Made by a program: the position numbers and the translations under genes. The notes under the pieces were generated by a model. It was not told the DNA's origin and ran no database searches. It saw nothing but the letters and a program-made list of their open reading frames with translations. A DNA stretch of 64,000 nucleotides from Endomicrobiales bacterium (GTDB lineage: Bacteria > Elusimicrobiota > Endomicrobiia > Endomicrobiales > JALOBY01), in assembly GCA_963796955.1 (NCBI GenBank), contig CAWCNJ010000004.1:256001-320000 (forward strand), in the 5' to 3' direction. Positions 8,523-29,538 of the stretch are shown in pieces. Within the stretch, counting starts at the first letter, position 1; each line of letters begins with the position of its first letter.

Positions 8523-8538
8523 CAGGAAATATTTTCCA

Positions 8539-9238: not shown

Positions 9239-9736
9239 ATGAAAAAGAGTATCATTTTCATTGTTCTCACATGTTTTTTTATGTCACAGTTACCTGTCTT
9301 TGCGCAACAGGCGGGTACGGTTTTTAAGCGCTCGTCCACGCTTTCTGCCCTATTCGATCCATTCTGTCTTGTAAATAATGCCTCGCAGGATGATGTTCCC
9401 TTAACCTCGCAATACCGTGTTCCTCCAAAATCCGGTCATGATCCGGTTGAAAATACCGCTCTGATCCAGGAATTCAGCTCGCTCGTTCGCATGACTTCTC
9501 AGGTAGGATCTGCTTATAATAGTTCGAAGTTTTGTCTATGGAATTTGTTCGCGCTTTCGGATCCATCACCCCCGAATACTCCATGGAGTGTAGATAATGG
9601 GGGATTATGTCTTATACTGCTAGCCTACATAGTGCTCCTTCACCGGAGTAATTTGCCCTGGCGTATCATGAACGCTCAGGCCTCAGTTAGTTATGTCCCG
9701 ACCCTACGACTTACTCAGGGCCGGGTTTTTTTATGA
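9239..9736 (+). CDS. small exported/membrane leader protein upstream of the giant gene
   Basis: Sec signal (MKKSIIFIVL...VFA), late hydrophobic segment GGLCLILLAYIVLL, ATGA overlap with giant gene. Confidence 0.7.
   Translation: MKKSIIFIVLTCFFMSQLPVFAQQAGTVFKRSSTLSALFDPFCLVNNASQDDVPLTSQYRVPPKSGHDPVENTALIQEFSSLVRMTSQVGSAYNSSKFCLWNLFALSDPSPPNTPWSVDNGGLCLILLAYIVLLHRSNLPWRIMNAQASVSYVPTLRLTQGRVFL
9697..9732 (+). terminator. intrinsic-terminator-like hairpin abutting the giant gene ATG
   Basis: cccgaccct/agggccggg stem (8 of 9 pairs), 11-nt loop, then T7 ending at 9732. Confidence 0.55.
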
Positions 9737-12700
9737 ATAAAATAATTTCCATTATCATCCTGGCTTGTTTTACTCTTACTTCGGTGGGCGGGCAAGCGCT
9801 GAATGCCGCCGCTGCCGAACTGCGCGCGCCGGCAGCTTCCAGGCCGATAGCGCCGCTTTTCGATGTGGTCATTCCGCAGGAATTTGGGCGTATCACAGAC
9901 GGCGCCCTGGCATCATCCGGACAAAAACAAATTGTTATCAATATTCAGGACCTGCATTGCAACCCGGAAGTACAGAGAAATATCTCCAGCATCCTTGAAC
10001 AGCTGGAAAAGCGATACGGGCTTTCCGCAGTTTATGTGGAAGGCGGTTACGGCAATATTGACACATCCTGGCTGTGCAACATGTCGAACGAGGCAACTAA
10101 GAAGAACATCGCTAATGCACTGGTAAGCGGCGGGCGGCTTACCGGAAGCGAATATTATTCGGTCACGGCCAACAAACCTCATTTGTTAAAAGGTCTGGAA
10201 GATGAAGCTGTCCATAAAGCAAACATCGTGCGGCTTGGCGAGATAATTAAACGAAAAGAAAGTGTCGGGCGTATATTAAAAGAAATGGAACATGAGCTTT
10301 CGTACATGGAAGCGAACGACTGCTGTCGCCAAAGCCGGAAATTCAACGAAACTGTGCAGCAGCATACCGCCGGCCGACTGTCGACCGAGAATTACTACCG
10401 GCTACTGCAGGGGTATGTCGAAAAAGTCTCCGGCAAACCAAAGAACTACCATGCTTTAGGAAACATTCGCATGGCAGACTTCCCAACATTAAAGGCATAC
10501 ATCGAACTTACGCACATTGCCAAGGACCTGAAGTACAAAAATATATCCCGTCAGCTGCGCCCTTTTATGCAGGTCGTAAAATCCAACATTTCGTTCATGG
10601 AATACAACGATCTTTCCGATAAAACCGATAACTTTTCAAGAACGAACGAGCTCTATTTTTATCTCGGCGCCATAGCTCAAAACCCTCGCATTGCGCAGCA
10701 GTGCCGGCCCCGCTACCCGGAGCTCTACACTTTTTTTGACTACACCGCCAGGAACAGACAGATAAACCCGCTAAGCCTCATCACAGAGGAAAAGCGTTTG
10801 ACCGAAGCATTACGCATAGCCTTCGCCCAAAACACCCCTGACCTGGAGGTTTCCTACCTCGCTGATTTCATGGTGTATTTTAAACAATACCTCTCCGGCA
10901 GTATAGCCGCCGACGATTATCAATATGTAAGCAGGCAGCTACCGGCATTCGTGAAAACATGGAAAGATCATTCGATCACCGGCCGCATCGACACCCTTTC
11001 AGATGACCTTGACCGGGTAAAAGAGTATTACGATACCAATTGCCGGCGAAATGAATGTTTCTTGACAAACGCGAACATCGCACGGAGCCCATGTTCATCA
11101 CTTGCCTGCATCCAGGATGTCCCTCCTGATGCATTGTCTCGTGCGTTGAAATCCTCACAACTTACCGTCATGGTTACCGGCGGCTTTCACTCTGAAGGAT
11201 TGAAAGCTCTGCTGCAAAACAAGGGCATAGCCTACATAACGATCACGCCCAATGTGACATTAGATACCGACCCCGCAAAGCAACTATACGAAATGCTCGC
11301 GCAACAGCAAGCTAAAACCTTCGCCAAACAATCCCTGGCCCTCGCCCTCGGCTCCACCAATGCCAAAGTCATTACCTCCGGCAACGACAAGTTCGTGGTA
11401 GAACTGAACGACGATCAGGTAACGTTGATAAGAAAAGGAGAGGGTTTTGTCATCTCCGGGTCATCGGTCCGCCGCGGCGGAAACTCAGCGCGCAGTTCTG
11501 CCGTAACGAGCGGCGTTAAAGAAGCCCTTGCCATCACGAATAAATTTCTCCACACAGAAAGCCTCATGTTAAACCCCGCTCTCAGTGCTGAACTTATTTA
11601 TCAGCTGGTAAAAACCTTCTCGCTCTGGTCCGCCCGTGAGGGGATCTACACCGGCAACGGGTTAATATGGTCCATTGCCACGGATCCTGCAGTGCAGGAT
11701 ATTATTAACACCAGGGAGGGAGTCACTCTCGAAGATTTGAACCAGCTCCCGGATATCATCCAGCGGCTCACAGCCGGCCATGCATCACAACCAACAATTG
11801 ATGCCCAGGTTGTTGTCTGTGCATTAGCGATATTACAAGAAAAAACTGCTCATGGGGCCACTGGGGTCGGGTCTCACAGCGAACAGAAAATTTCTTCGGC
11901 TGATAAGGGAGGTTCTTACGTAGACTTTAAAATTGGGTCACGTAAGTTCAGGATAATGCACGCGGACGGGGTAGTAAAAAGTAATTATTATGGGGACTTT
12001 ATGGTTGAAAGTGCCCCGATGATTGTTGAGGACCTTAAAAGAAGAGGAAACAAACTGAAACGGGTTTTTGAAGTGGGTTCCGGCAAAGGTGCAATGATAA
12101 CAGCTTTCGGGCTGCTTACCGGCGATGATACAAAACTGATAGGCATAGATATAAACGATAAGGCTGTCGCTTTAATTAAACAAAACGTCACGCTCAACGG
12201 TTTGGAAAACAAGGTAAAGGTTAAGAAAGGTAACGTAATAGATGACTGGGACACCGAGGGGCCGGTGGATCTGATTCTTGCGGACTTTCCTATGATCCCG
12301 GTTGACCCGGTAAAATACAAAAGCCAACTGGATGAACAGGCTTTTAAAGAGATTAACGGCGGCGCCGATGGAAGATATTATACGGATATGATAATTCGCA
12401 GGGCTTCGAGATATCTTGCAGATGATGGAGCAATTGCCATTGTCCAGCCGGATTTTAACGGAGTCGAAAAAACCTTGAAACTGCTCAACGAAAATGGTTT
12501 TGAAGCACATGTGATAGCTAAAAAAAAGCAGTACCTGGATGAAACCACTTTTACTAGAAATAACAAGGACTATATAGAAGGATTGGGTAACGATTATCGT
12601 TTTGCCACAGACGAAACTGGTCGATTGTACTTCAATATAGTAATAATTGAAGGCATAAAAATAAAAACTGGGGCATCTGGGGCCGGGACTCAATCGATAA

Positions 12701-15700
12701 GTGGGGCCAAGTCTCAACCGTTGATAGATAAAGATACAGGGGAGACCTTTAACTATAAGCCTCATCAGAAAGCTTTTAGTAGTATAAAAGTCGGTGGTCA
12801 TAAACCGAAGCTAAGCGGAACAGTGGTGTCTGTTCTGTATCCGTCAACGACAATAGATGGGATGAAGGTAAAAACTTTTAAAAGTGATGGTCCTTCCGGA
12901 AGCATGAGAATTGCACAAGGTGTATATGATTTCGCGATTTACGATGCTGATAGTGACGAATATTTGGTCAGCGATGGGTTCTGGCAAAATTTCCGGAATG
13001 CGGGTGAGCATGGCGCTTTGCTGCGTTTTGCAAGGAAGAAGCAACGGTGGGAGGCCGCTAATAAAGAAGCAGTTATAGGATACGGGGAACAACTTAAGTA
13101 TGAAATAGATGCGATCAGGCGCAGCAAAACAAATATTGATTCGTGGACCGACGATGAAAAAGGGCTGATTCCCGAGGCTGCTATGATGGAGAGATGTAGA
13201 CGTCTGCTTGGAAATTCTGTGGTAACCGCTACATCTGAAAACCGGAGCACGAATGCTAAACTCGTTGACATGCCACGCACCAGTAATGCTCAATTCGTTG
13301 CCGGTTTGCAACAACGTATATCGAATCGCACTTCATTAACCGTTAATGAAGGCGAAAAAATTATTCGTGAATTATTGGCATTGCGTACCGATAGCAGCGT
13401 ACGAAGGAATAAAATTGATCAACTTATAGAATCAGTTTTGAAGATCATGGTCCGTGAAGGTGAACAACAACCTCTTTTTGCTCCTATACCGTATGCACAC
13501 AAGATCGCATTTCGTGATGATCTTTTGGATAGGTTTGGATTGTTATTTGCGCTTATTTCAGAGACTGACAGCAATGGAACATACGCATGTAGCGGCTCAT
13601 TTATTAAAATGGTCATGGACAGGCCCTCTATTGATGGGAAAATACGTGTGCTGCTGACACTACGAAAAAAGGTGCTGAGCGGTGAGCTCCATAAGATTTC
13701 GGAAAGCATAAGTCTGATCCGTAGTCTGCGCGCGCTTGAGTCCGGCCGTCCCATTACAAGTATCTATCTTACTAGTATGATAGAACAGGTTTTAAAGGAT
13801 ACAGTCCGAGATGATGGGGTAAGGCTTTTTGCCGATGGACAAAGAACGGTAGCTACCGCGGGTTTATATGCAAACAAGATTGCTTTGCGCGGGGATGTTG
13901 ACAAAAGGATCGATCTGTTGTTTATGCTCATAAGTGAGCCGGATGGAAAAGGTGGTTATGAATTCAGCGATTCGTTCATTGATATCGCCATGAATGACGC
14001 TTCGCTGGACAGCAAGACACGTGCATTGTTGTCATTAAGGAAAAAGATCGCTAACAGCGGCTCGTTTGAGGTCTCTGAAAGCATGGGGTTGATCCGAGAA
14101 CTGCTTGCGCAGGTGTGCGAACGGCCAATTTCAAAAGTTTATCTTACCCCGCTTATCGAACAAGTTTTAAAGCGAACTGTCCGCAGTGATGGGGCAATGG
14201 TATTTTCTGCGGATATATACCCTCTCCACATAGCACGAAAAAAGGATTTATCGGACAAGATAGATATTCTGCACTACCTATTGAACGCAAGGGATGAGCA
14301 CGGCGTATATACTTATAATCAAAGTAAAATACTTCAAATGCTTAACAGGGATACTGCCGAGTTAAAAGATGCCATGACAAAACAAATTACATCATTTGCC
14401 ATGATCTCTCAATTGAAAAAAGAAGTTCAGAGCCGGGATACAATTGATGTGACGGCTGCCGAGAAGTACATTCGGCGCGCATTGTCGGTTGTTGACGGCA
14501 AAAGTATTGTTAGACCGAGGGTTACGCCAATATTAATGGAGATTCTGGACAGATTGGCGCGCGACGGTGAAAAAGTATTCGCCGGCAGCCGGTATTACAG
14601 CCGCCATCTCGCGGGTAACATTGAGTTGCAGAACTTAGACAACTTTGTACGGTTGGTCTCAGAAAAAAAGCGGGGAGGGGGGTATCAACAAGCCGAGGGA
14701 ACCAGCAAGTATACAGGTTCATACATATACAAGATAATGATGCATATTCCTGACGGCAGCAGGATCAATCAATTGCGGGACCTGGAGCAGGAGGCAACGG
14801 AGTCGGCAACATTAACTGTCGGCGAAGGGATGAACCTTGTTCGCCGTATTCTGGGTATGGTTGATGGGCGTAACATAAATCGTAAACAGGTCAGCCGGGT
14901 TTTAGAAACTATATTTGCGAAGATAGAACGTAATGAAGTCATGCTGCCTCGATACGCCAGGTTGCTAAGTGGAAAGTACGATATAGCGGATGTTCTAGAT
15001 GCTATTCAAACGATGTTGTCACTAAAGGACCTATCCGGACGTTATGTGTTCAGTAACTCCTTTATTACAACGAACTTAATAAAGGATGATATTGCTTTAA
15101 GGCAGGTCATTGCGGAGAGATATCATAAAACAATTACCGCTCAGCTGCAGCAGATAAGCGATATATCAGTCGAAAATGGTAATAGTGCGATCCATAGCCT
15201 TCTGCTATCAGTCGTTGGTACGATTATTAGTCGGGACCAGATTGAGCCATACGTTGAAAGTATTCTCTCAAAGATGATGCGTGATGGTCAGCGAATATTG
15301 CTTGCACAGAACAGCCAGGTCTTTGCACAAAGAGCCGATCTGTTGGATGTTCTTGATATATATGAAAAGATAGCCTCTGCGCGCGATGTAAATAATGAAT
15401 ATATATTTAGTAAGGATGAAATCAACGGCCTTCTTACTGAAAGACAGGGTTCTGCACCAGAAGATTTGAAACGAGAGTACTGTCAACGTGTGATCGCAGT
15501 TACAGAACGTCAGATCCCTACTCTGCACCCGGTTGATATGCAGCTGGGGATGCAGATTGTTTCTCAAATTGCAGACTCATATGAAATGTACCCACAGAAA
15601 TTTGAATGGGGACATCTCAAACTGGTGATAAAGGATATTCTTGCCCATATCACTCGGAACAATGAGCTCGTTTTTGTTGATGCTCAGCAGCTAAATGAAA

Positions 15701-18700
15701 TTGTAGGTAACCGTGGTTTCAGGAAAAAAATACCTTCTCTCATGGCACAATTATCTGATAAGACGGGAAACGAATATAGCTACTCCGCCACGGAAATATG
15801 GGCAAACCTATTCGCGAGAAAAGGTCATGTACCATCCATGGTATCTCTGGACGCGCAGCGGGGCGAGTATGGCGATTATACTATGTACGATCGGGTGCAT
15901 GAATCAGATGAAATATCGATGGAGGACAGCGCGGCCCTTGCGGAAGCGGTACTCGTTTTTGCCCGTCAGAGAGGAGTGAACCCCTATGAACCAGATCAAC
16001 TGGCAAAATTGCTAGATGATTTGATTCAAGAAGGCACAATTACTGATCGATCCGTCCGTAAAGGGAATCAATCCCTGGGAGTCGTCATAAAAACATCACT
16101 AGATCTTACTCTTGCCGAAGATGGTGTAAAGCAGTTAGTCGCTGGTAATGTACAGAAAGCGGCAACGTTGATAGCTCAAGCGATAGCGAAGAAAAATCCG
16201 TTCGTGCCGTTTGCGGAGCGGACGGTGTTGAACAATGATCCCAAGATCGCGCCGAAGCTTGAGGCACTGAAAGCCAGATTGCGTCAGATGCCGGAGTTCC
16301 CGCAGAAGATGATCGATAAGATCCGGGTGTATGACCGCGCCGGGCCGGATAAGCCCTGGATGTTGACGGCGGAAGGCAGTATCGGCTTTGCCACTGTTGA
16401 GCTCGGCGGTAATGACGGCGAAACCATTACCAGCATTCCCATATCCGCCGGCCTGCTGGATGAGAACCTGTTCAGCCTGGACGAACAAGCAACCGCTATC
16501 ATGCATGAACCGTTCGCCCTTAATTGGCGCAAGCTTAATCGGATGGGCGGAAAACTGCCTGCTACTGATGAAGGGTATCATCTCTATTTAAAAGCTAAGG
16601 TCAATTCCGGCATAGCGACCGATGATGAAAAACGTGAAGCAGCGCTGCTTGCGAAAGTAGATCCGCTGCTGCACGAGGTTGTCAACAATCTTCCGTTCGA
16701 GCTTACCGGGGAGATCACCGAATTTTTCCCCGGGATTCAGCTTGCGGGACACGTGGCTCTCAATGATATTCTAGGACTTCAAACCCAGGCCAAAAGGGCC
16801 GCAAGATTTAACGGTCTTTCTGTTACCGGGGAAAATACAAGAAAAGCAAAACAGGTGATCTCTGCCGCTATAGGCGGTTTTAAAGGCAGTGGCAGATTCT
16901 CGTTCATTATGATCGGCAGCGGCGGCCGCGGTGAGATGTGTTACAAATCCGATATTGATTACATATTGCTTCATGATGATAAAATGACACCCAAAGAATT
17001 AGAGGAAATAGCCTCGCGTGCCGGGGCGGCTGTGAAAAAAGCCGGATTTAACCCGGTTTCGGCTTTTAAGGTGGGCACCATCAGCACCATAATGGATAAC
17101 GCTGAGATCAGCAATATAGATAAATGGGTAATGTATGATATGGCATACGTTTGCGGGGATCAGGAGTTGTACGGTGATCTAGAGTCATCTTTTAAGGCAT
17201 CCCTCGCGAATAAAACACAGGATGACCGGGACAGGTTCGCGCTCAAATGGTATTTGCTGGAAAAAAGACTGCAGAATTTACATAGCGACGATCCTGCACA
17301 GCCCAACGTCAAAAATAGCAAGGGTTCCCTGAAAGATATTCAGCATATAGAACTTATGGCAAAAATGCTCTACGGCATTAGCGGCACTGATATAACGGAG
17401 ATCGCTTCAGGCATGGTCGACAAAGGCGTTTTAACCCTGGCTGAAGCTGATTCTCTTGTCGGATCCGCAAAATATATTTTTGCGGTTAGAAATCAGCTGC
17501 ATCTGCTTGCAGATGAGGAGGCCGATGTTTTAACTGAGCCGGTTCAAAAGCAGTTAGCCCAGATATTCGGATACGTGAACGGCGCCGATTTTTTAGGTGA
17601 ATACAAAGTAAAGGCCGGCGCGTTATATGAAATTGCTGAAAAATTAAGGAATAGCATGATCAAGGAAGTGGGGGAACGCAGGGGCCATTCCTGGGCAGGT
17701 ATGTTAAATATGGCGCTGCAGCCCGGGCAATCCAGAGAGAATTATTCGAGTCTGCTTGCTAACGGAGACGATATAATCTGGCTGGCTATTGCCTGTAATT
17801 GCAAGCATGGCGATGTTCTTGAACAACTTTTAGAGCGAATAATGGCCGGGAAACTGGATTGGAGTCTCCTGTTCGGTTTAGCAAAGTCTCCGAATTCAAC
17901 GCCGGCGATATTCAAACGGTTGCTCGAGTTCAAAGACAAAGGCAACGGTTACCGGATGGTCGTGCGGGATGTCGGTTTGAACCGGTCTACCCCGGTGGAA
18001 ATGTTGCTGACCATCACAAAAGAAAACGGGTATGATTATATGGCGGTAGATTTTGCCGAGGCGAACTTAAAGGCACGACCCCAGGAAAGAAATGCCTTTC
18101 TTGAAAAAGAATATCAGCTGGCGATGGTTGAACCGCTGGCTAAAGCACGGGCGCTTGGGAAAGCGGATATCGTAATAGGTATACCGTACTACATGGAGCA
18201 AGACACTATAGAGAATGTATTCCGTAAAATACTGGATGGCCTGAACAGGGATTATCCCGGTAAAAAATGCGTTATTTTGTGCGCCGGGAACCCGGATAAC
18301 CAGCGTACACGGGACATACAGGCTTTGATAAACAAGATCGGTCTTAAGGGGCAGACCCAGGCGATCGCTTATCTGGTGCCTATAGCGGGGAAGGGCATGG
18401 CCTTAAGGTCAATGATGGAGATGGCTGAAACCATGGATAGCGATGTCTGTGGTTTTATCGATGCTGATGAACGTGCCATAACAGAAGATTGGGCGCCCAG
18501 TTTGGCCGCGCCCGTGCTTTCGGGACAGTATGATTATGTGTCGCCCCGGTATACGCGCCACCACCACACGGCAACTATAACTAATCATTTCGGGTTTCCT
18601 CTCGTCAGCACGGTATACGGCAAGCAAGTGCGCCAGCCCATGGGCGGTGAATTTGCGATGTCAAAGGAAATGATAAAGGTTTTCCTGAAAGATCCCGACA

Positions 18701-20196: not shown

Positions 20197-20850
20197 TCGA
20201 AACCTCACTGGAGCTGGCGCTTTGCGCCGAAGGTGTGAAGCATTTCGTTGCCGGTAACGTGCAAAAAGCGGCCGGGTTGTTAGCGCGGGCAATAGCAGAG
20301 AAAAATCCATTCGTGCCGTTTGCTCAAAGAAGGTTAATGAACACTCAACGTCGAGGTCGCACCCAAACTTGAGGCGCTGAAAGCCAAATTGCGACAGACA
20401 CCGGGCTTCCCGTCGGAGCTGATCGATAAAATCCAGGTTTATGACCGCGCCGGGCCGGAGAATGACGAATGCTGGATGTACACGGGCGAAGGTAGTATTG
20501 GCTTTACCACCATTGAGCTTGGGGAAAAAGACGGCGAAACCATTACCGCCATTCCCATCTCTGCCGGCCTGCTGGACGGGAATATCTTTAGCCTGGAGGA
20601 ACAGGCCGCCGCTATAACACACGAACCGCATGCCCTAACCTGGCGCAAGGCCAATCGGATCAAAGGTAAACTACCCGCCACCGATGAAGGTTATCATAAA
20701 TATCTGGGGAAGAAAGCAGAGGCTGATAAAGCGACTGAAGAAGAAAAACTTGAAGCCGCCCTGATGGATAGGGTCAAGCCAATGCTTGATCGCGAAGTAA
20801 CCAGCCTGCCTTTTGTTATTTCAAAAGAAATAGCGGAATACTTTCCCGGA
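20178..20850 (+). repeat. ~220-aa spacer module, copy 2 (split over two frames)
   Basis: QSLGIVIETS...KIQVYDRAGP...EGSIGF...HEP...PATDEGYH...EYFPG. Confidence 0.9.
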
Positions 20851-23800
20851 GTTGAACTCGCAGAAGGAGCTGTAAGTTCGTTGGGCGAAATATTAGGGTC
20901 AACCCAGTCGCAATCTCGCGACATGGAAAATGTCTCTGGGGTAGATAATACCGTGAGCCCGGCGAATAGTACAAAACTCAAGTCTGACGCCGGTAGCATT
21001 CTGGTGCATACCGGCGCGGCGGGGGCCACAGCTGACCGGGTGGTGCGCATGATTCGCGCTGCACTTTCTGCAGGAGGGATAGTGCTGGATGAGGGAACAG
21101 AGCTGGCTCTTACTGCGGGGATCTCTGCCGGAGTTGTAAGCGCTTCGTCCGATGTTACCGGTATCGGACAGGGGCGTTTGCTATGGTGGGATGGCTGTGA
21201 ACGTCCGTTCGAGCAGGAAATAAAAGAAGCGACCGGACTTGACGTTTCCGTGACAACCGTGCAGGGTACGGGGCCCGCAGATATGATGTTCGTTGAGAAA
21301 GGCGTGTGGGGGTTTCTGACGTATGACCCGAGAAACAAGACGGTCGTGGTTTCTGATGGTATATGGAGGCCATTCCTTGCCCCCGGCGTCGGCGAGTTTG
21401 AGGACGAGGAACGGCTGTCTATGTTCACGCTTGCAGCGGGAAGCGACAGGGCGCTGAACGAGCCGGCCTCGCAGGAACAGGCCGAACTGCTGGGGTATTT
21501 ATCTAAAAAACTGTCCCACAGAGAACTTTTTGACGATGCGGAAATGAAGCATATCGGCGATGGCGGCGCCGGTGCAAAAGAGCTCTATGATCGGCTGATG
21601 GTTGCCCGGGGCAAGGAAGCCATAGATGTTCTTGACCAGTTATTGCGTGCAGCGGGCATCACAAAAAAAGCATTTGAGTACTGGTATGATGCTATCAGGG
21701 AATCAGTGCATTCCGGCGATACCACGCATAAAGCTGAGGTCGAGGTACTGGATAGAATAGAAAAGGCGGCAAGCCTCTCTCAGTTCAGTACGTTCGACGA
21801 TAGTCTTCAAGGAAAGGTTACGGCGCTGGTCAACGGAGCGCTCGATGTCGTAGCCAGGGGGACCTTAACGACCGGTCTTATAACATCAATAGCCGGCCTC
21901 GCTGACGCGAAGACAACGGTGCATATGCCCGTGCCCTGTGTGGTGGAACTGAGCGCATCCGGGGTCAAGCTGTCGCGCGCGGTCAGGATGCTTGATATGG
22001 GTCTTCCATTTAAACCGAAGGAGCAGAAAAGTTGGATGCTGCGGCGGCAGGAATCGGGTCTTGTTCAAAGGTCAGCACAACGCAGGCTGAAACTTGGCGC
22101 TCCTTCAATTCCCGCACAGGAAAAAAGAGATGCCCAGCCGCCGCAAAAAGAAGCGCTGCTTTTGGAGCCTGCGCAGCAAATGCCTGAAACCGGCCTTATT
22201 CCCGGCGCTCCTCAACAGGAAACACCGGCGCTGAAAATGCAGAAGGATGGCCTTCCCTTAGAAAATACAAAGCGGAAAGCTGAAACGGGACAGATGAAAA
22301 AAGCCGAGCCTATCGGTGAGCCAGTGGTGATCAACAGCTGGCTGGATGACGGCAGGCTTGTGCTTGCCGGTAACGGCGAATGCTTTTTCGGGTATCTGGA
22401 CCAAGAGGGACGCTGCGCTCTTCAAGGTTCGCCATACATAAAGATCCAGGGGGCGTTCGGATTAAACAACACGAACGGCGAGATCCCTGTATTGCATGGT
22501 GATGTCTTTGCGGGAGCCGCGGCTGAGGTATATAACTTTGACGAGATGCAAGGCGGATACCGCAGGGAGCCGGTATTTGGCGATGACCAATTCTATTCAT
22601 GGGGGTACTACCCGCGCCGGATAAGCTGCGCGATGAATGGAAAATATCGAGGCAAATTCGCGGTTTGCGGCCCTCATGGGACTCTTAACGTTGAAGTATG
22701 GTGGCAGGGCCAGCGGCGGCTTGAGCCAATAAAATTGACGTATTTTGGCGGGCCGCAGGTTATGACTGACTTTTACGCGCTGGAATGGTCGCACGACGGC
22801 AAAAGGCTTGCGGTCTGCGGTGACAAAGGAGAAGTGTGGATACTGGAACGGAATGAAGACAGAACGTGGAAGTTTATGAAGCTTGAGGCGCAGGACGAGT
22901 CGGGAAAAGCCATTGGCGAGTTCGCCCGCACGCGGATAACCCAAAGCCATTGGTCGCCGGACGGGCGCCTGCTTGTCTCGGGTGAAATGAAAGGCGACAA
23001 ATCCCGCGCATGGATACTGGACTTAAGAAACACCGCTGGTTATCAGGTAAAAGCGCATTTGCTTACCAATACGCACGGTCAACCTCTGTGCAGTGTGAGT
23101 GATGCGGCATGGTCGGGCGATAACCGGCTTGCGATAGGAGGAAGCACGGACCGCGATGGAGCGCACTCTGTATATGTTTATGCCCCTGGCGAGACAACGT
23201 ATGAAGTTCAACAGGTGGCGCTTCCAGGCGCGGATAAAGCTGAACAAGTCCGTTCACTTGCTTTTTCAAAAAGCAACAGGCTTGGCGTTGTGGGGTATCA
23301 TGATGTTGTAATAGAAAATGTGCCGGACAAAGTATGGGTCCTGAATCTTAAGGGCGACGGGGTTTTTGCAAACACCGTAAAACTGGAAGGCGTTAATATA
23401 AGGATAGCCAATCTTTCCTGGTCGCCGGACGGACGGTGGCTATGCGGTTCAGGCAGCGCCTCCGCGGCAAATATATGGGAGGTCGGCCCGCTTGCTGAGC
23501 TTGCCGCACAGGGCCGTCTCGAAAACACGGGAACGGCCGGTGACAGGCATGAACTGTTGGCAAATAGGGTAGCCGGGGCAGCTGGGGTCGGATCTCAAGT
23601 ATTGGTAACTGCGCAAACTGAGACGAATGAATCCGCTGCTACAAGTGTTAAACCTAATAACCTAAGAATGCCCCCTACTGCCGATTCCACAGATCCGCAG
23701 ATATCAATTGCAGATGAGCAATTACTGCAGAAGTATTTGGCAAAACTGGGGAAGGGCCCTCGCTTGTTGTTTGAATTCCCGAATATGCCTTTACTGGATC

Positions 23801-26800
23801 GGCAGCTTAATAAAACTGAATTCAATGAATGGAAAAAACAAAGGCAGGCGGTATGGTCCCAAATTTATGTTGTTGTAACTTCTTTGCCATGCAAGATAAT
23901 GGATGCTAAGCTCGGCTACGGCGACCGGATCCGCTATGTGTTAAATGAAACTTTTCATAACTCATGCGATGCCATTTTCTCAAATTATGACGCTCGTGTG
24001 TTGAAGAATTCAGGTGTGCCGGTTCGGCCGGCAAACTACGTCGGAAAGATATGGGTTGACGTTTCTGTGGTCGGAAACAATCTAGTTTTCAAGGTAATGG
24101 ACAATGGTTTAGGTATATATGCCGCAAATACCAATCAAAAGAAAAACCTAAGAAAAGCGCTTGCCTCGGTGTACTTTGGCGACCTTGGGGAAGGGCTCGA
24201 TAATATCAGTAAGTACGTAGCTGATAAATCACTAAGTTATGAGCAAAAGCTTGCCTTCAGCCAAGAAGATCGTAAGGTGAGTGAGACGGTTATAACTGTT
24301 CCTTTAGCAAATGTGACATTTGTTCAAGAATCTCTCGCCAGATTACCATCTTTGCAGGCAGCTGAAGAAGATTATTTGCAGGAGCCGATTGGGACCAAAT
24401 CCAGCCTTTCGACAAACGTGGACATGCGGGATGACAAAAACGGGAAACACGAACAATCTCTTGGGGTAGTGATTAAATCCTCGGCGGAGCTTGCGCTTTC
24501 TGCTGAAGGGGTAAGGCAGTTAGTAGCGGGCAGTGTTCAGGGTGCGGCGAGTTTGATAGCGCTGGAAATTGCGAAACAGCATCCGAAACCATACAAGTCG
24601 TTTACTGATCCCGAGCGAGTGGCGGATAGCAGTCCGGAGGTTGTCGCGAAATTGAATAAGCTTATAGATGCGCTGCGCGATCGCGGTGTCAGTGAGGATA
24701 TCATTGCCAAAATACAGGTTTATCCGCGCGACGGGCCTGAAGGGTATATTTGGACCGATGAAGGCAGTATCGGTTTTGCCGGCGCGTTGTTCGATGGAAC
24801 GCCGCAGCATAACCTTACACTGCTGCCGGTTTCCGAAGGGCTTTTCACGCGCTATCCCAATGTGGAAGATCAAGTTATCGCTATTCTCCATGAGCCGTAT
24901 GCCGCCGATTGGCGACGCGCTAATGGCTGGCCCGCAACCGATGAAGAATACCACAAAGAACTGCTCGGTGGCCTCAGTAAAGGTACCTTGCCCTCCGAGA
25001 AAATCCGCGAGGCTGAACTGATCAAAGATGTTGAAGATCTGCTGAATAAAGTTATTCCTGCCCTGCCGTTCAATGTTACCGAAGATATCGCGGAATACTT
25101 CCCCGGAGCTAAGTCAGCGATAAACACCGAAAAATCAATAACCGAGTTGCTTAAGTTAGTTAAGTCTGACACCAGGTCCATTGGTGTGGATACAGGAGCC
25201 TATCCCGTGATACCCGGATATCGCATCACCGGGAAGGCGGGTTCCGGGACGACTGCGATAGTATACAGCGCTACAGAGAGCGCCACTGGTCTGAAAGTCG
25301 CTGCAAAAGTCGCCCGTTCGACATGTTTAGAGAAGAGTAAACCGCAGCTCGAAACAGAATCGAAGTTCTTCGCGATGTCTACGAGCGGGCGTTTTCCACG
25401 CTTGATCACACATGGTGTTACGAAACTCGGCGAGCCCTATGAGATCATGGGATTTGTTGCTGGTAAAACTCTTGAGAAATGGATATACGATAATAGAAAA
25501 GCAACCGGTACTGCATATTCTATCCGTTGTCTTTCGATTATTTTCCAGATAGTGCAGGCGTTGCAGGAGGCTCATGTTCAGCACAATGTTATATACCGGG
25601 ACCTGAAGCCTTCTAACGTTATGGTTGAAGATATTCCCGGCGGAGCTGTTAAAGTTACGCTTGTTGATGCCGGCCTCGTTACTGCCGTGGGTGAACCTCA
25701 GGACGGCAGCGGTACATACGCTTTTTCCGCGCCGGAACAACAGCCGGGGAGCATCGCCGATCTCCGTTTCGACTTCTTCCCGGCAGGCTTGCTCCTGTTC
25801 CGCCTGCTTATACATAATGATTGGGCCCTTTCTGATCTCCGGAAGAACATGGACCTGGTCAGGCTGGACGAAGGACTGAAGCGGGAGTTAACGAATATCA
25901 TAGAAAAGGCCGTCGCACAACAGCCGAAAGACCGTTATCACAACGACAAGGAATTCCTGGACGAGGTAGATCAAGCTTTGGCCTTGGCGAGGCGAATTGA
26001 GTCTGCTGAAACGGCGTGGGCCGATCGTTACCGTTTTGAACACCCGGTTCTGTCGCATCTGCCTATTCTTGGTACTTATTTAATGCGCCGCATTGTCGCC
26101 AACTCAGTTAATCCCGTATCTTCACAAAAAACAACGCGATTAACAACCGGTGAAACGGTTAAGAATTATATAGTTAAGCACTCCGCTATGCGTTTTATTT
26201 ATACCCATAATATCCTTTGGCTAGGCAGAGGTTTTGTAATTGCATGTGTCTCAATTTCGCGCAGCGAGCTTGGGGCGTCGGTGGCGGAGCTTGGGATGTT
26301 CGCCGAGGCTATCGCGGCAAGGCTTACGAATGATAATACCGCGTATAATAAGCTGGTATTAGCCCACAAACCCGAAGGCATGAGTGAAGAAGATTGGCTG
26401 CAAAGTGCTGCGAAGGAAAAAGTGGAAAGCGGTTTTCTTGCCCTGGAAGCTAAGCTATTGCGCAACTTCCCGGGAGTAACGCCGGCAGCTGTTCTAACCA
26501 ACAAAATCGTCCACGCCTGGATAGTGGAAACCCACCGGAAACACAACCTGGCCGTGCTGATGAACTTTAAACTGCACATTATTAATCTAGGCAGAATTTT
26601 AACCTTGCGCAAACCCCTCCCCTACGGCTTGCTGACGACAAATGGGGAAGATAAGTCAAATGCCGTAGCGCAAGACCTGGCCCCATTGGTACTGCCAAAA
26701 GAGCCGGAAATATCTGCACGTATGTCTAATTTAAAGAAAGCGCGTGTGCTGAGCGAATATATACTGTTATTGAGCGACTTGTTTTATCAAGTGTGTCCGG

Positions 26801-29538
26801 ATGGGAAATCGGTATATGTGGAGAAAGTGGTTAGAAATACGTCCATATCGGTAATGACAAATTTCTCTCAGTGGATCGGCCATGGAGTGTTTGATCATTC
26901 GAAATTAATTCAGATACTTAGCTATTACGAGACAGATGGATACAAAATATTTGAACACGATGATCTGGAATCGCTTTATAAAGATATTCGTGACCATGTA
27001 CAAGCAATATCAGATTATGCGCAAGACGATAGTTTCCTTAAAAATTATTCCATCCCTGATGTTAGCAAATATACCAAGGAAAACCCAATGTCGCGTTCGC
27101 AGGCTGTGATGTACTTCCTGAACGAAGCCTTCGGCGGTAGTTCGCCGGAAGCCGCCCAGCGCTACGCGCGGTTCAAACGAATAGTCGCTCAGATGGAAAA
27201 AGTAGAACCCGACTTTGAAAAATACATCCAGGCCGTCATAGCCGATTACAACAACTGGAAGGCCGCCCAAACTGCCGCGACTAGTCAAAAAGACAAGTCT
27301 GACACCGAAATATCAACGCTATCCAATGTTTCATATAGCAGCGTAATGCATGTTTCATTGTTCGATAAGGCGTTGAAGGATCTTGAATTTGTTTATAGCG
27401 ATAGCGTTGAGCGGGCAGTGAAGGATGGGTTGGATCGTACCGCTACGGAAAAAGGCAATCCCGATGAAGTGACTGTGGCGAACGTGCGGTTTTTTAAAGT
27501 ATGGTCCGGCGTACATCGTATTTGGGTCTGTGCGAGGGAACAACATACCGGAATGCGGGCGGTGCTGGACGAGCTTGGGATCGAATACTGGTTAAAGTAC
27601 GATGACAAAGCCCAGATCGTGATCTCGCAGCACAGTTTAAAGGCGCTCTCTATAACGAATCCTGAAAGGATCGCCAGGGAGTTGGATTCTGCGCTGGACC
27701 GTAAGGCCGCTGACGATAAAACGCCCAATTCAGTTGTGTTGTGCGGTGTCAGGTTCTTCAGAGTCCAGGCCGGCAAATGGCCCAGGTGGGCTGCTGAGCG
27801 TAAAGAGCACGACGCTTTTATTAAGCTCGGTACAAACCCGGGAAGCCCCGTGCAGTTTATCGTAAAAGAAAATAGGCAGCCAGAGAATGAAGCCGTATCA
27901 CTGGATTTTCATAATGTCCCAGCGGCGAAGCTTCGCGAGATCATTCAATCGTATCACGCTGTTACCACGGATGATAACGGCGGATTACATACCAATATCT
28001 ATCTGCTGGATGCCCCGACTCCTGATATGGAAAGCTGGGATTGGCACAACACGGGTATGGTCGTGAACGGTAACCCGGTATGGTTCAGCGCGAAAGCGAA
28101 TGCGCTGGTGCTGTTTTCCGAAGGAGCGCAAAGCTCGGAAGTTGCAGCGCGTATCGCAATGACAATGACGGATAGGAATGGCGTGAAAGAAGGCCGGCTG
28201 ATCCGTCAGGCATTTGAGCGTCTGGGCCGGGAGCAGGAGATCGATCTGAGCGCCCGGGGCTATCAGGTGGGCATCCGCATAGATCACTCCGCGCCGGGGG
28301 AAACCGTGAATTATATCAACGGTGAAATGGTGGTGAGTGCGGGCTATTTCGAGGCGGGCGGAAAGACGACACCCGGCAGGATTTCCCTAAAGCTTGGCGG
28401 ATTAGAAAAATTTCGCAAAGCTGAAAGCAAGGCGTTGCAGCAGGAAATATATATCGGCATGGATGATGTAAACGACTTTAACGGATTGCTGGAAGAACTG
28501 GCTTTGTTCGACCGGGCAGGCAGCGGGCAGATGGTAGTAAAGGCTGCCGTATTTGACGGGAAGAGTGAAACGCAGATACGCGCTGTCACAGATCTTGCCC
28601 GTAGGGCTGGTATTAAAATAATGATCAACACTGTCCAGGGTTGTCAGCGCGATTGGCAGTCGCTTGGTTTTGCAGGATATTATGACGGACGCAAAATGTA
28701 TGATTTCACGGCGAAACCAGAGGGGGACAGTGCGGATGAAATAGGCGATTTCAAAACGCCGGATGTATTAAAAAGCAAGCTTGCCGGATCAAACGCGGCT
28801 TATAAGATAGTTACATGGAGCAACTTGAAGGGGTTGCTTGCCGAGCGATCCATTGTTGAGCGTGTTGCGATAGGTGAAATACTGAAAACTTCCGTGTTGG
28901 GCCTGTATAGGGCCGAGACGACGCTGACAGAGAACTATGTCCGGGACGTGGGGTATAATTTGGAACGGGATGCATTGCCCACGGTGATAAACGACTCCGC
29001 GCTGGCTGATGCGGTGAAGAGCGGTTCCGTTGAAGAGATACAGGAAGCGCTTCAAATAAACGGGCAGGAACATGTTGTCAACGCATATCTTGCTAAACTG
29101 GCCGGAGACATTGGCGGGAAGAATCAGCAGAAGCTAAAGGAACTTCAACTGGCGTTCTTAACCGCGGTCGTTGAAAAAGCTCTGTCTAAATCAAAACTTG
29201 ATAGCGTCGGTAAGACCGATGGCCTTGCGGATCAGGGTTTTGAGATAACTCTTGGCCAAAAACTGCTGAAGCAAAAGCAGGATAATACTGCCGGGCCTGT
29301 TGATGTAAAAACGCTTACGATGTTTGCAGGTCTGGAAAAAGAAAAATTAGCGGGTGAATTCTTCCGCTCTCTTTCAACGAAAGTAACTGAATTAAACGCT
29401 CGCAAAGATCCTGAGGCAATAAACACCGTAATAGAACTAATAGCCGCCCGCGCTGAAACGAAAATACGTTTTGATAAGGATTCTCTGCAGACCAAGTTCG
29501 ATGCCGAAGCCGTAACCGCCGTCCTTGAAGCCGGATAA
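20341..29538 (+). CDS. giant multidomain protein part 2: spacer module, WD40 propeller, HATPase, spacer module, Ser/Thr kinase, C-terminal region; probably the same gene as part 1
   Basis: same frame as part 1, reopens at 20341 mid-repeat with no SD or proper start; WSPDG repeats, NxCDA/DNGLG, YRDLKPSN/APE. Confidence 0.85.
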   Translation, partial: TLNVEVAPKLEALKAKLRQTPGFPSELIDKIQVYDRAGPENDECWMYTGEGSIGFTTIELGEKDGETITAIPISAGLLDGNIFSLEEQAAAITHEPHALTWRKANRIKGKLPATDEGYHKYLGKKAEADKATEEEKLEAALMDRVKPMLDREVTSLPFVISKEIAEYFPGVELAEGAVSSLGEILGSTQSQSRDMENVSGVDNTVSPANSTKLKSDAGSILVHTGAAGATADRVVRMIRAALSAGGIVLDEGTELALTAGISAGVVSASSDVTGIGQGRLLWWDGCERPFEQEIKEATGLDVSVTTVQGTGPADMMFVEKGVWGFLTYDPRNKTVVVSDGIWRPFLAPGVGEFEDEERLSMFTLAAGSDRALNEPASQEQAELLGYLSKKLSHRELFDDAEMKHIGDGGAGAKELYDRLMVARGKEAIDVLDQLLRAAGITKKAFEYWYDAIRESVHSGDTTHKAEVEVLDRIEKAASLSQFSTFDDSLQGKVTALVNGALDVVARGTLTTGLITSIAGLADAKTTVHMPVPCVVELSASGVKLSRAVRMLDMGLPFKPKEQKSWMLRRQESGLVQRSAQRRLKLGAPSIPAQEKRDAQPPQKEALLLEPAQQMPETGLIPGAPQQETPALKMQKDGLPLENTKRKAETGQMKKAEPIGEPVVINSWLDDGRLVLAGNGECFFGYLDQEGRCALQGSPYIKIQGAFGLNNTNGEIPVLHGDVFAGAAAEVYNFDEMQGGYRREPVFGDDQFYSWGYYPRRISCAMNGKYRGKFAVCGPHGTLNVEVWWQGQRRLEPIKLTYFGGPQVMTDFYALEWSHDGKRLAVCGDKGEVWILERNEDRTWKFMKLEAQDESGKAIGEFARTRITQSHWSPDGRLLVSGEMKGDKSRAWILDLRNTAGYQVKAHLLTNTHGQPLCSVSDAAWSGDNRLAIGGSTDRDGAHSVYVYAPGETTYEVQQVALPGADKAEQVRSLAFSKSNRLGVVGYHDVVIENVPDKVWVLNLKGDGVFANTVKLEGVNIRIANLSWSPDGRWLCGSGSASAANIWEVGPLAELAAQGRLENTGTAGDRHELLANRVAGAAGVGSQVLVTAQTETNESAATSVKPNNLRMPPTADSTDPQISIADEQLLQKYLAKLGKGPRLLFEFPNMPLLDRQLNKTEFNEWKKQRQAVWSQIYVVVTSLPCKIMDAKLGYGDRIRYVLNETFHNSCDAIFSNYDARVLKNSGVPVRPANYVGKIWVDVSVVGNNLVFKVMDNGLGIYAANTNQKKNLRKALASVYFGDLGEGLDNISKYVADKSLSYEQKLAFSQEDRKVSETVITVPLANVTFVQESLARLPSLQAAEEDYLQEPIGTKSSLSTNVDMRDDKNGKHEQSLGVVIKSSAELALSAEGVRQLVAGSVQGAASLIALEIAKQHPKPYKSFTDPERVADSSPEVVAKLNKLIDALRDRGVSEDIIAKIQVYPRDGPEGYIWTDEGSIGFAGALFDGTPQHNLTLLPVSEGLFTRYPNVEDQVIAILHEPYAADWRRANGWPATDEEYHKELLGGLSKGTLPSEKIREAELIKDVEDLLNKVIPALPFNVTEDIAEYFPGAKSAINTEKSITELLKLVKSDTRSIGVDTGAYPVIPGYRITGKAGSGTTAIVYSATESATGLKVAAKVARSTCLEKSKPQLETESKFFAMSTSGRFPRLITHGVTKLGEPYEIMGFVAGKTLEKWIYDNRKATGTAYSIRCLSIIFQIVQALQEAHVQHNVIYRDLKPSNVMVEDIPGGAVKVTLVDAGLVTAVGEPQDGSGTYAFSAPEQQPGSIADLRFDFFPAGLLLFRLLIHNDWALSDLRKNMDLVRLDEGLKRELTNIIEKAVAQQPKDRYHNDKEFLDEVDQALALARRIESAETAWADRYRFEHPVLSHLPILGTYLMRRIVANSVNPVSSQKTTRLTTGETVKNYIVKHSAMRFIYTHNILWLGRGFVIACVSISRSELGASVAELGMFAEAIAARLTNDNTAYNKLVLAHKPEGMSEEDWLQSAAKEKVESGFLALEAKLLRNFPGVTPAAVLTNKIVHAWIVETHRKHNLAVLMNFKLHIINLGRILTLRKPLPYGLLTTNGEDKSNAVAQDLAPLVLPKEPEISARMSNLKKARVLSEYILLLSDLFYQVCPDGKSVYVEKVVRNTSISVMTNFSQWIGHGVFDHSKLIQILSYYETDGYKIFEHDDLESLYKDIRDHVQAISDYAQDDSFLKNYSIPDVSKYTKENPMSRSQAVMYFLNEAFGGSSPEAAQRYARFKRIVAQMEKVEPDFEKYIQAVIADYNNWKAAQTAATSQKDKSDTEISTLSNVSYSSVMHVSLFDKALKDLEFVYSDSVERAVKDGLDRTATEKGNPDEVTVANVRFFKVWSGVHRIWVCAREQHTGMRAVLDELGIEYWLKYDDKAQIVISQHSLKALSITNPERIARELDSALDRKAADDKTPNSVVLCGVRFFRVQAGKWPRWAAERKEHDAFIKLGTNPGSPVQFIVKENRQPENEAVSLDFHNVPAAKLREIIQSYHAVTTDDNGGLHTNIYLLDAPTPDMESWDWHNTGMVVNGNPVWFSAKANALVLFSEGAQSSEVAARIAMTMTDRNGVKEGRLIRQAFERLGREQEIDLSARGYQVGIRIDHSAPGETVNYINGEMVVSAGYFEAGGKTTPGRISLKLGGLEKFRKAESKALQQEIYIGMDDVNDFNGLLEELALFDRAGSGQMVVKAAVFDGKSETQIRAVTDLARRAGIKIMINTVQGCQRDWQSLGFAGYYDGRKMYDFTAKPEGDSADEIGDFKTPDVLKSKLAGSNAAYKIVTWSNLKGLLAERSIVERVAIGEILKTSVLGLYRAETTLTENYVRDVGYNLERDALPTVINDSALADAVKSGSVEEIQEALQINGQEHVVNAYLAKLAGDIGGKNQQKLKELQLAFLTAVVEKALSKSKLDSVGKTDGLADQGFEITLGQKLLKQKQDNTAGPVDVKTLTMFAGLEKEKLAGEFFRSLSTKVTELNARKDPEAINTVIELIAARAETKIRFDKDSLQTKFDAEAVTAVLEAG
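24454..25107 (+). repeat. ~220-aa spacer module, copy 3
   Basis: QSLGVVIKSS...KIQVYPRDGP...EGSIGF...HEP...PATDEEYH...EYFPG. Confidence 0.9.

Follow-up and report, generated by a model that had tools for sequence, protein, structure and literature searches.

A giant modular gene of an Endomicrobiales bacterium, interrupted as assembled, belongs to a family with conserved ends and variable enzyme cargo

Introduction

This report concerns a giant gene in a 64,000-nucleotide stretch of the genome of an Endomicrobiales bacterium (phylum Elusimicrobiota; GenBank assembly GCA_963796955.1, contig CAWCNJ010000004.1, positions 256,001 to 320,000); the whole stretch is called the window, and all coordinates below refer to it. 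The gene comprises about 6,600 codons (9733–29538) and encodes a representative of a large family of giant Endomicrobiales proteins that lacks annotation and is modular in build, with a conserved N-terminal head domain, which is also found in Omnitrophota, a conserved C-terminal domain, and varying enzyme domains in between. As assembled, the gene is broken mid-way, inside the second of three copies of a spacer module; under translation table 11 it reads as two open reading frames (ORFs) in the same frame, designated ORF1 (9733..20196, 3,487 aa) and ORF2 (20389..29538, 3,049 aa). The overall explanation that we favor, and to which we would give an even chance of being correct, is that the chain is a Sec-targeted precursor that would be cut into separate enzyme cassettes; we infer the cutting, the location and the topology. 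New elements of this work are the Endomicrobiales setting, the zincin-like junction module, the common C-terminal domain and the finding that the gene is interrupted.

Multi-enzyme giants with export signals are a recognized puzzle of the Omnitrophota for which there is no known mechanism, and the locus extends the phenomenon to the Endomicrobiales, where the family can reach two dozen copies in a genome of 1–3 Mb. Three conserved parts offer testable residues, namely the head (D73, H75, E103 and H486), the module (H146, E147 and H171) and the last ~565 aa. Should the head or the module indeed cut the chain, bacteria would have a way of expressing genes as polyproteins that encode their own proteases; should neither do so, the family would be a novel type of enzyme assembly tethered to the membrane. 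Nielsen and Lui (2026; bioRxiv 10.64898/2026.06.07.730766) described multi-enzyme Omnitrophota giants, 94% of which possess transmembrane (TM) helices or signal peptides, and in the accessible text of that preprint cutting is not reported. West-Roberts et al. (2023; bioRxiv 10.1101/2023.11.21.568195) had suggested that the Omnitrophota giants might be cut by peptidase domains of the C39 or S8 type at their N-termini.

Conserved ends and variable cargo

The conserved parts and the spacer modules of the locus are listed here by window position.

9733..9816, plus strand: signal-peptide-like N-terminus, aa 1–28 (Kyte-Doolittle values, homolog N-termini)
9865..11277, plus strand: head domain, aa ~45–515, predicted as a TIKI/ChaN/erythromycin-esterase-like α/β core with a ~290-aa helical insert at aa 157–446 (AlphaFold2 model, VIA-align, conservation)
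11278..11790, plus strand: conserved post-head region, to aa 686 (BLASTP)
16069..16770, plus strand: spacer copy 1, putatively zincin-like, with H146-E147 ... H171 (BLASTP, AlphaFold2 model, fold search)
20178..20339, plus strand: spacer copy 2, N-terminal 54 codons, in the +2 frame (codon comparison with copy 1)
20347..20865, plus strand: spacer copy 2, remainder, in the main frame (65% identity to copy 1 over aa 58–227)
24454..25155, plus strand: spacer copy 3 (44% identity to copy 1 over aa 1–226, E 1e-44)
26092..26658, plus strand: conserved ~190-aa block common to the paralog on contig C5 (BLASTP of ORF2 aa 1916–2104 against P0003 aa 5397–5588, 43% identity, E 4e-38)
27838..29538, plus strand: conserved C-terminal domain (~565 aa) and stop (order-wide matches; 37% identity to the C5 paralog)

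An earlier note on this DNA, made from the sequence alone, had proposed a protein with fixed ends and swappable cargo, and our searches agree with that proposal. The first 556 residues, representing the head, found matches in 45 of 61 Endomicrobiales genomes (own genome included), with up to 26 per genome; 150 matches were listed and 399 more were reported, and among the matches listed the head-bearing open frames ranged from 555 to 12,027 aa. The last 550 residues matched in 24 of the 61 genomes (43 matches in all), in the same frames as the head. Comparison of the head and C-terminal matches showed that both ends are present in at least 20 open frames, which are 1,686–9,302 aa long, and one of these is an uninterrupted 6,489-aa paralog on contig C5 of the same genome (L053, hereafter the C5 paralog). 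A BLASTP comparison of the locus protein with this paralog revealed that only aa 1–686 (43% identity), the ~190-aa block (43%) and the last ~565 aa (37%) are held in common; the Pfam content of the C5 paralog is APH and Metallophos.

The other two-ended members carry CofD, TPR, radical SAM or HATPase domains, or nothing that Pfam recognizes. In a set of 102 head-bearing proteins (974–2,780 aa), whose source names are either "hypothetical protein" or taken from the cargo, the cargo included HEAT, radical SAM, APH, GT2, kinase and phosphatase, methyltransferase, HD, NUDIX and HAD domains, together with PEP-utilising domains, alpha-amylase/CBM48, aminotransferase, GDE_C, FBP aldolase/phosphatase, Metallophos and PGM. 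One fixed domain order among homologs, the finding that the earlier note had set against its own proposal, was looked for and not seen; the cargo varies widely.

Across a sample of the phylum, the head was present in 98 of 401 genomes with a patchy distribution, some families having it in 9/9 genomes and others in 0/118. The closest relative searched (G001; 1.4 Mb, 99% complete) had no head match, and in the small-genome genus g11 the head was found in 9 of 20 genomes at 1–5 copies each, versus 12–21 in genomes of 1.5–2.2 Mb from the same family; the head family seems to have been lost with genome reduction. Of 30 head-related loci, 20 had Endomicrobia, Endomicrobiales or Elusimicrobiota records. 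The position of the head was checked in 27 of the 30, leaving out L034 (frame problem) and L043 and L044 (partial matches). It opens the ORF in 18 of 19 Elusimicrobiota loci, with an in-frame stop 4–66 codons upstream and a frame that continues for 882 to >3,876 codons. In six of the eight loci labeled Omnitrophota or "Planctomycetia", the head homolog stands alone and ends after 484–542 codons (~490–560 aa). These stand-alone heads are in L038, L039, L041, L042, L045 and L046; L045 and L046 each have another head-like start ~2.7 kb further downstream, and in L039 the head is followed by large unannotated ORFs (1,100 and >2,094 aa). A Pfam scan of the neighbors of the stand-alone heads in Omnitrophota loci identified no common partner.

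The signal-like N-terminus and the head domain

The N-terminus of the protein (MNKIISIIILACFTLTSVGGQALNAAAAE) contains a Lys, a 25-residue uncharged run and small-x-small sites, which is in line with the Sec-like signal described in the earlier note. By a crude rule (K/R, hydrophobic run and small-x-small sites), the same features were kept in 20 of 21 aligned homolog N-termini. Residues 1–28 are the sole segment of ORF1 and ORF2 with a 19-aa Kyte-Doolittle mean of at least 1.6, and there are no internal TM helices. A lipoprotein reading of "ILAC" (aa 9–12) was ruled out, the Cys being within the hydrophobic run and not conserved.

The motifs IQDLHC (aa 71–76), VEGG (aa 101–104) and VTGGFHSEG (aa 481–489), to which the earlier note had drawn attention, are all present. 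An AlphaFold2 (AF2) model of the head, built on a 25-sequence alignment, reached a predicted local distance difference test (pLDDT) of 84.5 and a predicted template modeling score (pTM) of 0.77, and displayed an N-terminal helix (aa 2–30), a disordered linker and an α/β core formed by aa ~50–155 and ~457–512. In VIA-align, the model was matched with ChaN (2g5g; Z 8.0, 184 aligned residues, root-mean-square deviation 5.6), HopBA1 (5t09; Z 7.1), 2qgm (6.4) and 2rad (6.3), as well as with EreC (6.2–6.8, with 6xcs at 6.8) and PMT (2ebf; 5.5). Only TIKI-superfamily rows spanned both halves of the core, and the other rows were explained by the helical insert alone. At the sequence level, Pfam at E ≤ 1 returned two chance-level rows for aa 1–556 and none from the TIKI superfamily, NCBIfam gave none in the head region, and a profile search of PDB sequences with the head found nothing. 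No curated model of the TIKI/TraB/ChaN/erythromycin-esterase superfamily (PF01963, PF04187 and PF05139) matched the head.

Residues D73, H75, E103 and H486 are invariant in 25 head sequences, as are Q72, Q81, E140, E156, N164, Y433 and R439. The accessible part of one paper on the TIKI superfamily (PMC6254334) names PMT, HopBA1, Bcr135 and ChaN as structures of the superfamily and gives its 2His/2Glu catalytic set as E3900, H3902, E3930 and H4030 in RRSP and H85 and E113 in Bcr135. The Asp-x-His, Glu (+28) and His set of the head parallels this motif: the spacing of 28 from H75 to E103 is that of H85–E113 in Bcr135 and H3902–E3930 in RRSP, an equivalence drawn by motif and not by superposition. 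Among the members of the superfamily (Tiki, TraB/PrgY/GumN, ChaN, erythromycin esterases, Bcr135/136, RRSP, HopBA1 and PMT C1/C2), the predicted α/β core matches ChaN, HopBA1, the Bcr135 type, EreC and PMT at middling scores. Unlike them, however, the head matches no Pfam model and no PDB chain by sequence, its core is split by the ~290-aa helical insert, its first acidic residue is Asp rather than Glu, and it is fused to the N-terminus of giant proteins. As judged from the model and the conserved residues, the head is probably a divergent TIKI-superfamily hydrolase with a full Asp-x-His/Glu/His set and is predicted to be active; for the head and the spacer modules alike, hydrolase activity is a prediction.

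Conservation continues beyond the head, and BLASTP alignments extended over aa 1–686 with the C5 paralog (43%), aa 1–694 with P0009 and aa 1–684 with P0008. Right after the head (11340–11400, aa ~536–556), a sequence of the form L-A-L-A-L-G-S-x-x-A-K was observed in about half of the aligned homologs. Its similarity to the x-L-G with which the spacer modules begin may reflect a shared junction signature or chance.

The spacer module and the C-terminal domain

The earlier note had seen three copies of one spacer, and alignment bore this out: the copies, of ~230 aa each, start at 16069, 20178 and 24454, and aligned with copy 1 the second gives E 4e-70 and the third E 1e-44. The C5 paralog likewise contains three related modules (starting at aa 1782, 3608 and 4655), with 17–19% identity to the copies of the locus. 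A profile made from these six copies was run against 1.84 billion representatives and matched nine proteins at E ≤ 0.001, among them the two halves of the gene and the C5 paralog, and a query with the module of a single protein among the 61 genomes found only the own genome.

In 14 module copies from five genomes, G106, H146 and E147 are invariant and H171 is nearly so. Most copies have HExx[E/H] with a later W-H: the three modules of the C5 paralog show HELAEH (two of three) and HEGGEY, and other copies show HEVAEY, HEIAEE, HEFNEN, HEFNDN, HEFSEN and HEINEN. The AF2 model of the module (overall pLDDT 60.3, with residues 50–200 at 65–89) places H146-E147 on a long helix that follows β-strands. 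VIA-align returned Ste24p (Z 6.0), ZMPSTE24 (5.6), and abylysin and HtpX (4.7), with further rows for aspzincin, a predicted zincin, jannalysin, AsaP1, Wss1, selecase, BepA and SPRTN. Judging by their titles, 18 of the 50 rows are zinc metallopeptidases. The best Foldseek rows were selecase (E 0.4) and ZMPSTE24, all at E 0.4–1; no match in the PDB was obtained at E ≤ 0.001. A profile search of PDB sequences gave a single row (E 0.42), and the ESM Atlas, queried with the module and with the C-terminal domain, gave scores ≤ 0.88 and no useful lead. The model and these comparisons weakly suggest a zincin-like module with a metallopeptidase-like fold.

In the accessible part of Zhang et al. (2012; PMC3482391), zincin-like releasing peptidases within large multidomain toxins are an established concept. 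The predicted module resembles these peptidases of polymorphic toxins (PVC-metallopeptidase, HExxHxxQ-E) and the M48/minigluzincins (Ste24, HtpX, selecase and abylysin) in having a small β-sheet with helices and a His-Glu pair on the first long helix, and in lying ahead of cargo within a multidomain protein of very large size. The differences are that most copies carry HExx[E/H] and the three copies of the locus HE alone, that the fold scores are weak, that the module occurs three times per protein, that the variable part is central instead of C-terminal, and that no immunity gene is evident.

Every module in the C5 paralog, P0007 and P0009 opens with G-[FM]-[LF]-G-[IVF]-S, a motif found nowhere else in those proteins, and the copies of the locus open with QSLG[VI]VI. 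No other recurrent 5- or 6-mer was found at the cassette borders. In P0006, a 500-aa protein fragment, a module of the locus type (…HERNAAKWRY…DEAYHEYL) is followed by CVTGDTLL … TANHPYLV. The latter looks like Hint/intein splicing blocks, which would be a second type of self-cutting element in the family.

The C-terminal domain, compared with Pfam and with PDB sequences, gave nothing but a weak TIM-barrel row (3-hexulose-6-phosphate synthase, E 0.018). A TM-like cluster at aa 4341–4611 of the C5 paralog has no equivalent in the locus protein; a similar cluster lies between the module and the C-terminal domain in P0007 and P0009.

Possible processing, tethering or export of the chain

According to our favored explanation, the chain would be made as one precursor, with the N-terminus targeting it to the membrane, and would then be cut into separate units, for which the zincin-like modules are the candidate built-in cutters, comparable to releasing peptidases. 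Conservation, position and precedent suggest cleavage by the modules: the His-Glu pair is kept in every copy, the modules lie between cargo blocks, and the accessible part of Zhang et al. (2012; PMC3482391) provides the releasing peptidases as a parallel. Processing of the chain as such we hold to be a little short of an even chance. Since the cargo needs ATP, S-adenosylmethionine (SAM), nucleoside triphosphate or a nucleoside diphosphate (NDP)-sugar, it must act in a cytoplasm, and we attach nearly even weight to the possibility that after cutting it works in the cytoplasm of the producing cell or on the inner face of that cell's membrane. Delivery of the cargo into another cell is unlikely, as is some other arrangement, and export that leaves the cofactor problem in place is slightly more unlikely still. 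A bolder version of the precursor explanation is a virus-like polyprotein strategy, in which a conserved, exported TIKI-type head and, in this lineage, zincin-like junction modules would turn a 6,600-residue product into several independent enzymes, the modular junctions making cargo cassettes exchangeable between paralogs and some products perhaps reaching a partner cell; this we consider doubtful.

Several observations weigh against the precursor explanation. The module is rare, its profile matching in 7 of 104 Endomicrobiales genomes and in none of the 89 of the largest family, so that it cannot be a general processing device of the giant family. The copies of the locus read HEPF, HEPH and HEPY, followed by a gap of ~9 residues, and are without the second His of HExxH; from their sequences they may be inactive or degenerate. 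The fold assignments are modest for both the module (Z ≤ 6.0, pLDDT 60.3, Foldseek E ≥ 0.4) and the head, whose scores are middling (Z ≤ 8.0) and for which Foldseek found no match in the PDB at E ≤ 0.001. As for short junction motifs, R[SAN]ExR, xSELR, DxAM and GAR[LM]A had 0–2 matches, at chance level, in ORF1, ORF2, the C5 paralog, P0007, P0008 and P0009. Gene breaks at module starts likewise received no support: in a head-bearing locus of another genome of the order (G003:C18), a chain of abutting ORFs, the boundary between frames of 4,413 and 3,144 aa lies ~2.4 kb before the next module. Finally, with a Lys ahead of its hydrophobic run the signal-peptide-like N-terminus would be expected to export the whole of the chain behind it, which conflicts with cytoplasmic cargo unless cutting occurs very early, and the first module comes 1,400 residues after the head.

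Of the alternatives, the one that survives best, although we find it fairly unlikely, is a multi-enzyme scaffold that is never cut, with the N-terminal helix as its membrane anchor and the modules as structural or regulatory relics of peptidases. The absence of the second zinc-binding His from the locus copies would fit such relics, but a His-Glu pair that is invariant in 14 of 14 module copies is unexpected for a pure spacer, and the catalytic set of the head is invariant as well. A tethered scaffold would also agree with the failure to find a recurrent short junction motif, with the housekeeping-like cargo across the family, and with the Omnitrophota giants, 94% of which have TM helices or signal peptides and for which the accessible text reports no cutting (bioRxiv 10.64898/2026.06.07.730766), whereas, given the positive charge that precedes the hydrophobic run, most of the chain would be expected to lie outside.

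A further alternative, which was that of the earlier note and which we regard as rather unlikely, is a secreted self-processing effector polyprotein: the chain would be exported and its cassettes (kinase, GlnD-like nucleotidyltransferase, glycosyltransferase and methyltransferase) released in a host or prey cell, as in MARTX. The cargo types of the locus resemble known protein-modifying effector activities, which counts in its favor. Elsewhere in the family, however, the cargo includes glycogen enzymes, PGM, FBP aldolase/phosphatase, PEP-utilising domains and radical SAM (which needs an Fe-S cluster), all of them unlikely effectors, and this housekeeping-type cargo makes the effector reading fit poorly. 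The signal-peptide-like N-terminus, kept in 20 of 21 homologs, would suit export, but no RTX repeats, cysteine protease domain (CPD) or secretion genes were found at the locus, and no path through the outer membrane could be identified. The variable cargo between fixed ends, the protease-like head and modules, and a Hint/intein-like motif after the module of P0006 are likewise compatible with an effector; up to 26 head matches in a 1–3 Mb genome would, on the other hand, constitute a very large effector load. In the accessible part of the TIKI paper, an endopeptidase of the TIKI fold is a MARTX effector (PMC6254334).

The interrupted gene

The earlier note had taken the gene for a single ORF of ~6,600 aa, and this did not hold: as assembled there are two ORFs, six in-frame stops between 20194 and 20346, and two frame changes. 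The source genome (2.1 Mb, 11 contigs, 81% complete) carries the locus on contig C4, and in the public protein collection the two halves are filed as separate proteins, P0001 and P0005. The stop of ORF1 (20194–20196) falls inside spacer copy 2. The +2 frame is open over 20067..20372 and carries the first 54 codons of that copy (20178–20339); the protein of this out-of-frame stretch, QSLGIVIETSLELALCAEGVKHF...PFVPFAQRRL, represents the N-terminal 54 residues of spacer copy 2, which resumes the main frame from about 20347. Because copy 2 is split over two frames, read-through needs two frame changes. The first is somewhere in 20067–20178, with an A5 run at 20127, and the second is just before 20347, where copy 2 is one base longer than copy 1.

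When the 54 out-of-frame codons were compared with those of copy 1, 17 were identical, 20 synonymous and 17 non-synonymous, and the 45 base differences were distributed 11/5/29 over the three codon positions; two control offsets gave only 1 and 2 synonymous codons. The third-position excess and the synonymous codons suggest that the stretch evolved as coding sequence in the frame of the spacer module, and hence that the break is recent or an artifact. On this codon comparison, the stretch bears a signature of purifying selection, and the break would be either very recent or an assembly error.

A decaying pseudogene, in which the frame break is real and there is no functional product, is very unlikely: the clustering of six stops and two frame changes in a stretch of no more than ~270 nt, the G003:C18 head locus that is also a chain of abutting or overlapping ORFs, and the dispensability of the family implied by the lack of a head match in the closest relative searched (G001) would suit it, but outside a ~300-nt patch 19.8 kb are open in one frame, the catalytic motifs are intact, 29 of the 45 differences in the out-of-frame stretch are at third positions with 20 synonymous codons, and an assembly of 11 contigs for 2.1 Mb with an A5 run at the first-shift site is compatible with an indel error.

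The head-bearing locus just mentioned (L076 and L077; G003:C18:23500-59900) contains abutting or overlapping same-strand ORFs of 492, 1,452, 574, 4,413 and 3,144 aa, among others, and looks like a giant gene broken several times by frame changes.

Comparison with known giants and toxins

With the Omnitrophota giants known as "multi-enzyme metabolic clusters", the locus protein shares a signal peptide or TM segment combined with many unrelated cytoplasmic-type enzyme domains per chain, and the same repertoire (methyltransferase, HATPase, HAD and kinases), as far as the accessible text of the two preprints describes it. As in class 1 of Nielsen and Lui (2026), again in the part available, many distinct Pfam families tile the protein and none dominates. 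Moreover, head homologs occur in Omnitrophota metagenome-assembled genomes at 23–29% identity. It differs in its phylum (Elusimicrobiota, Endomicrobiales), in its length of 6.6 thousand residues, which is under the limit of 10 thousand for the catalog as given in the accessible text, and in having no internal TM helices. The TIKI-like head, the zincin-like module and the common C-terminal domain are not described in the accessible text of the two preprints, whose supplements may list such clusters, and a literature search found no paper describing the head, the spacer module or the C-terminal domain.

The earlier note had also called the protein MARTX-like, which as a membership could not be upheld. 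Conserved ends, a variable internal enzyme array and protease-like domains inside the chain are features in common. Unlike MARTX, however, the locus is without glycine-rich RTX repeats or an inositol-phosphate-activated, autoprocessing CPD (C80) in either half (Pfam, E ≤ 0.01), there are no type I secretion genes near it, and its signal is N-terminal and of the Sec type instead of C-terminal. MARTX membership was rejected. Membership among the polymorphic toxins (Zhang et al., 2012) was rejected as well: the C-terminus is a conserved part, and the next gene is a convergent GNAT gene and not an immunity gene.

Cargo cassettes of the locus

The cargo of the locus, in order, is as follows.

12019..12552, plus strand: class I SAM methyltransferase (HemK/MTQ2-like), aa 763–940 (Pfam MTS 1.6e-8 and Methyltransf_31; NCBIfam PRK14968 5e-24 and HemK2/MTQ2 4e-17, both NCBIfam matches below curated cut-offs)
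13342..15426, plus strand: helical repeats, at least six units of ~110–135 aa, aa 1204–1898 (BLASTP with one unit)
16837..17589, plus strand: nucleotidyltransferase (DUF294/GlnD-type), aa 2369–2619 (Pfam GlnD_UR_UTase 1.2e-14 and DUF294 4e-8; NCBIfam UTase_glnD 5.5e-24, below cut-off)
18124..18888, plus strand: GT-A glycosyltransferase (glucosyl-3-phosphoglycerate-synthase-like), aa 2798–3052 (NCBIfam NF010496 1.9e-14, below cut-off; Pfam MGS_GT 3e-4)
19417..19989, plus strand: HAD phosphatase, aa 3229–3419 (Pfam Hydrolase 8e-20 and HAD_2 4e-14)
22774..23526, plus strand: WD40-type β-propeller (Pfam WD40 3e-7, ANAPC4_WD40 7e-7 and further propeller models)
23923..24213, plus strand: GHKL/HATPase-like segment, weak (Pfam HATPase_c E 0.0049, 17.7 bits versus a cut-off of 26.4)
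25219..26010, plus strand: Ser/Thr protein kinase (Pfam Pkinase 4e-18; NCBIfam PknB-type 4e-26, below cut-off)

For six domains (methyltransferase, nucleotidyltransferase, glycosyltransferase, HAD, WD40 and kinase), the positions given in the earlier note agree with those from Pfam and NCBIfam. The helical repeats that it described were also recovered; with one unit as BLASTP query, units were located at aa 1204, 1312, 1437, 1563, 1696 and 1799 (E 1e-19 to 0.027). Its HATPase is less secure: N-box, G1 and G2-like motifs are visible, but HATPase_c stays under its cut-off. Motifs are visible in the other cargo domains as well: the methyltransferase has GSGKG, the nucleotidyltransferase GSGGRGE...DID, the glycosyltransferase DADE and the HAD phosphatase DWDGT, and the kinase has YRDLKPSN, DAG and SAPE. 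The HAD phosphatase directly follows the glucosyl-3-phosphoglycerate-synthase-like GT-A domain (18124–19989), an order that is reminiscent of two-step glycosyl-glycerate compatible-solute synthesis. A Pfam search at E ≤ 1 of the unassigned stretches, the head, the spacer module and the C-terminal domain yielded the weak HATPase_c match only.

The GC content at third codon positions is 0.41–0.44 in the methyltransferase and helical repeats (0.44 in the repeats) versus 0.51–0.57 in most other blocks, and these differences would fit a gene of mosaic origin. Another short element that recurs, ending in VSDG[FI]W..F, was observed at 12760–13040 and 21140–21420 (GVYDFAIYDADSDEYLVSDGFWQNF / GVWGFLTYDPRNKTVVVSDGIWRPF), one copy being after the methyltransferase and one after spacer copy 2.

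Genomic neighborhood

The genes flanking the locus are glyQS, an HMGL-like gene, two unknown small ORFs, a GNAT gene, an oxoacid:ferredoxin oxidoreductase, recN, NAD kinase and ychF. These flanks, which are housekeeping genes, contain no dedicated secretion system; a TolC-like gene and an AcrB-type resistance-nodulation-division (RND) pump lie 7 kb downstream. The gene next to the giant gene encodes the convergent GNAT acetyltransferase. The small upstream ORFs (8491–9141 and 9239–9736) had no match beside the other head-bearing loci compared. The second of these (9239–9736), a 165-aa ORF without a Pfam family, has a signal-peptide-like N-terminus (MKKSIIFIVLTCFFMSQLPVFAQQ) and overlaps the start codon of the giant gene by 4 nt.

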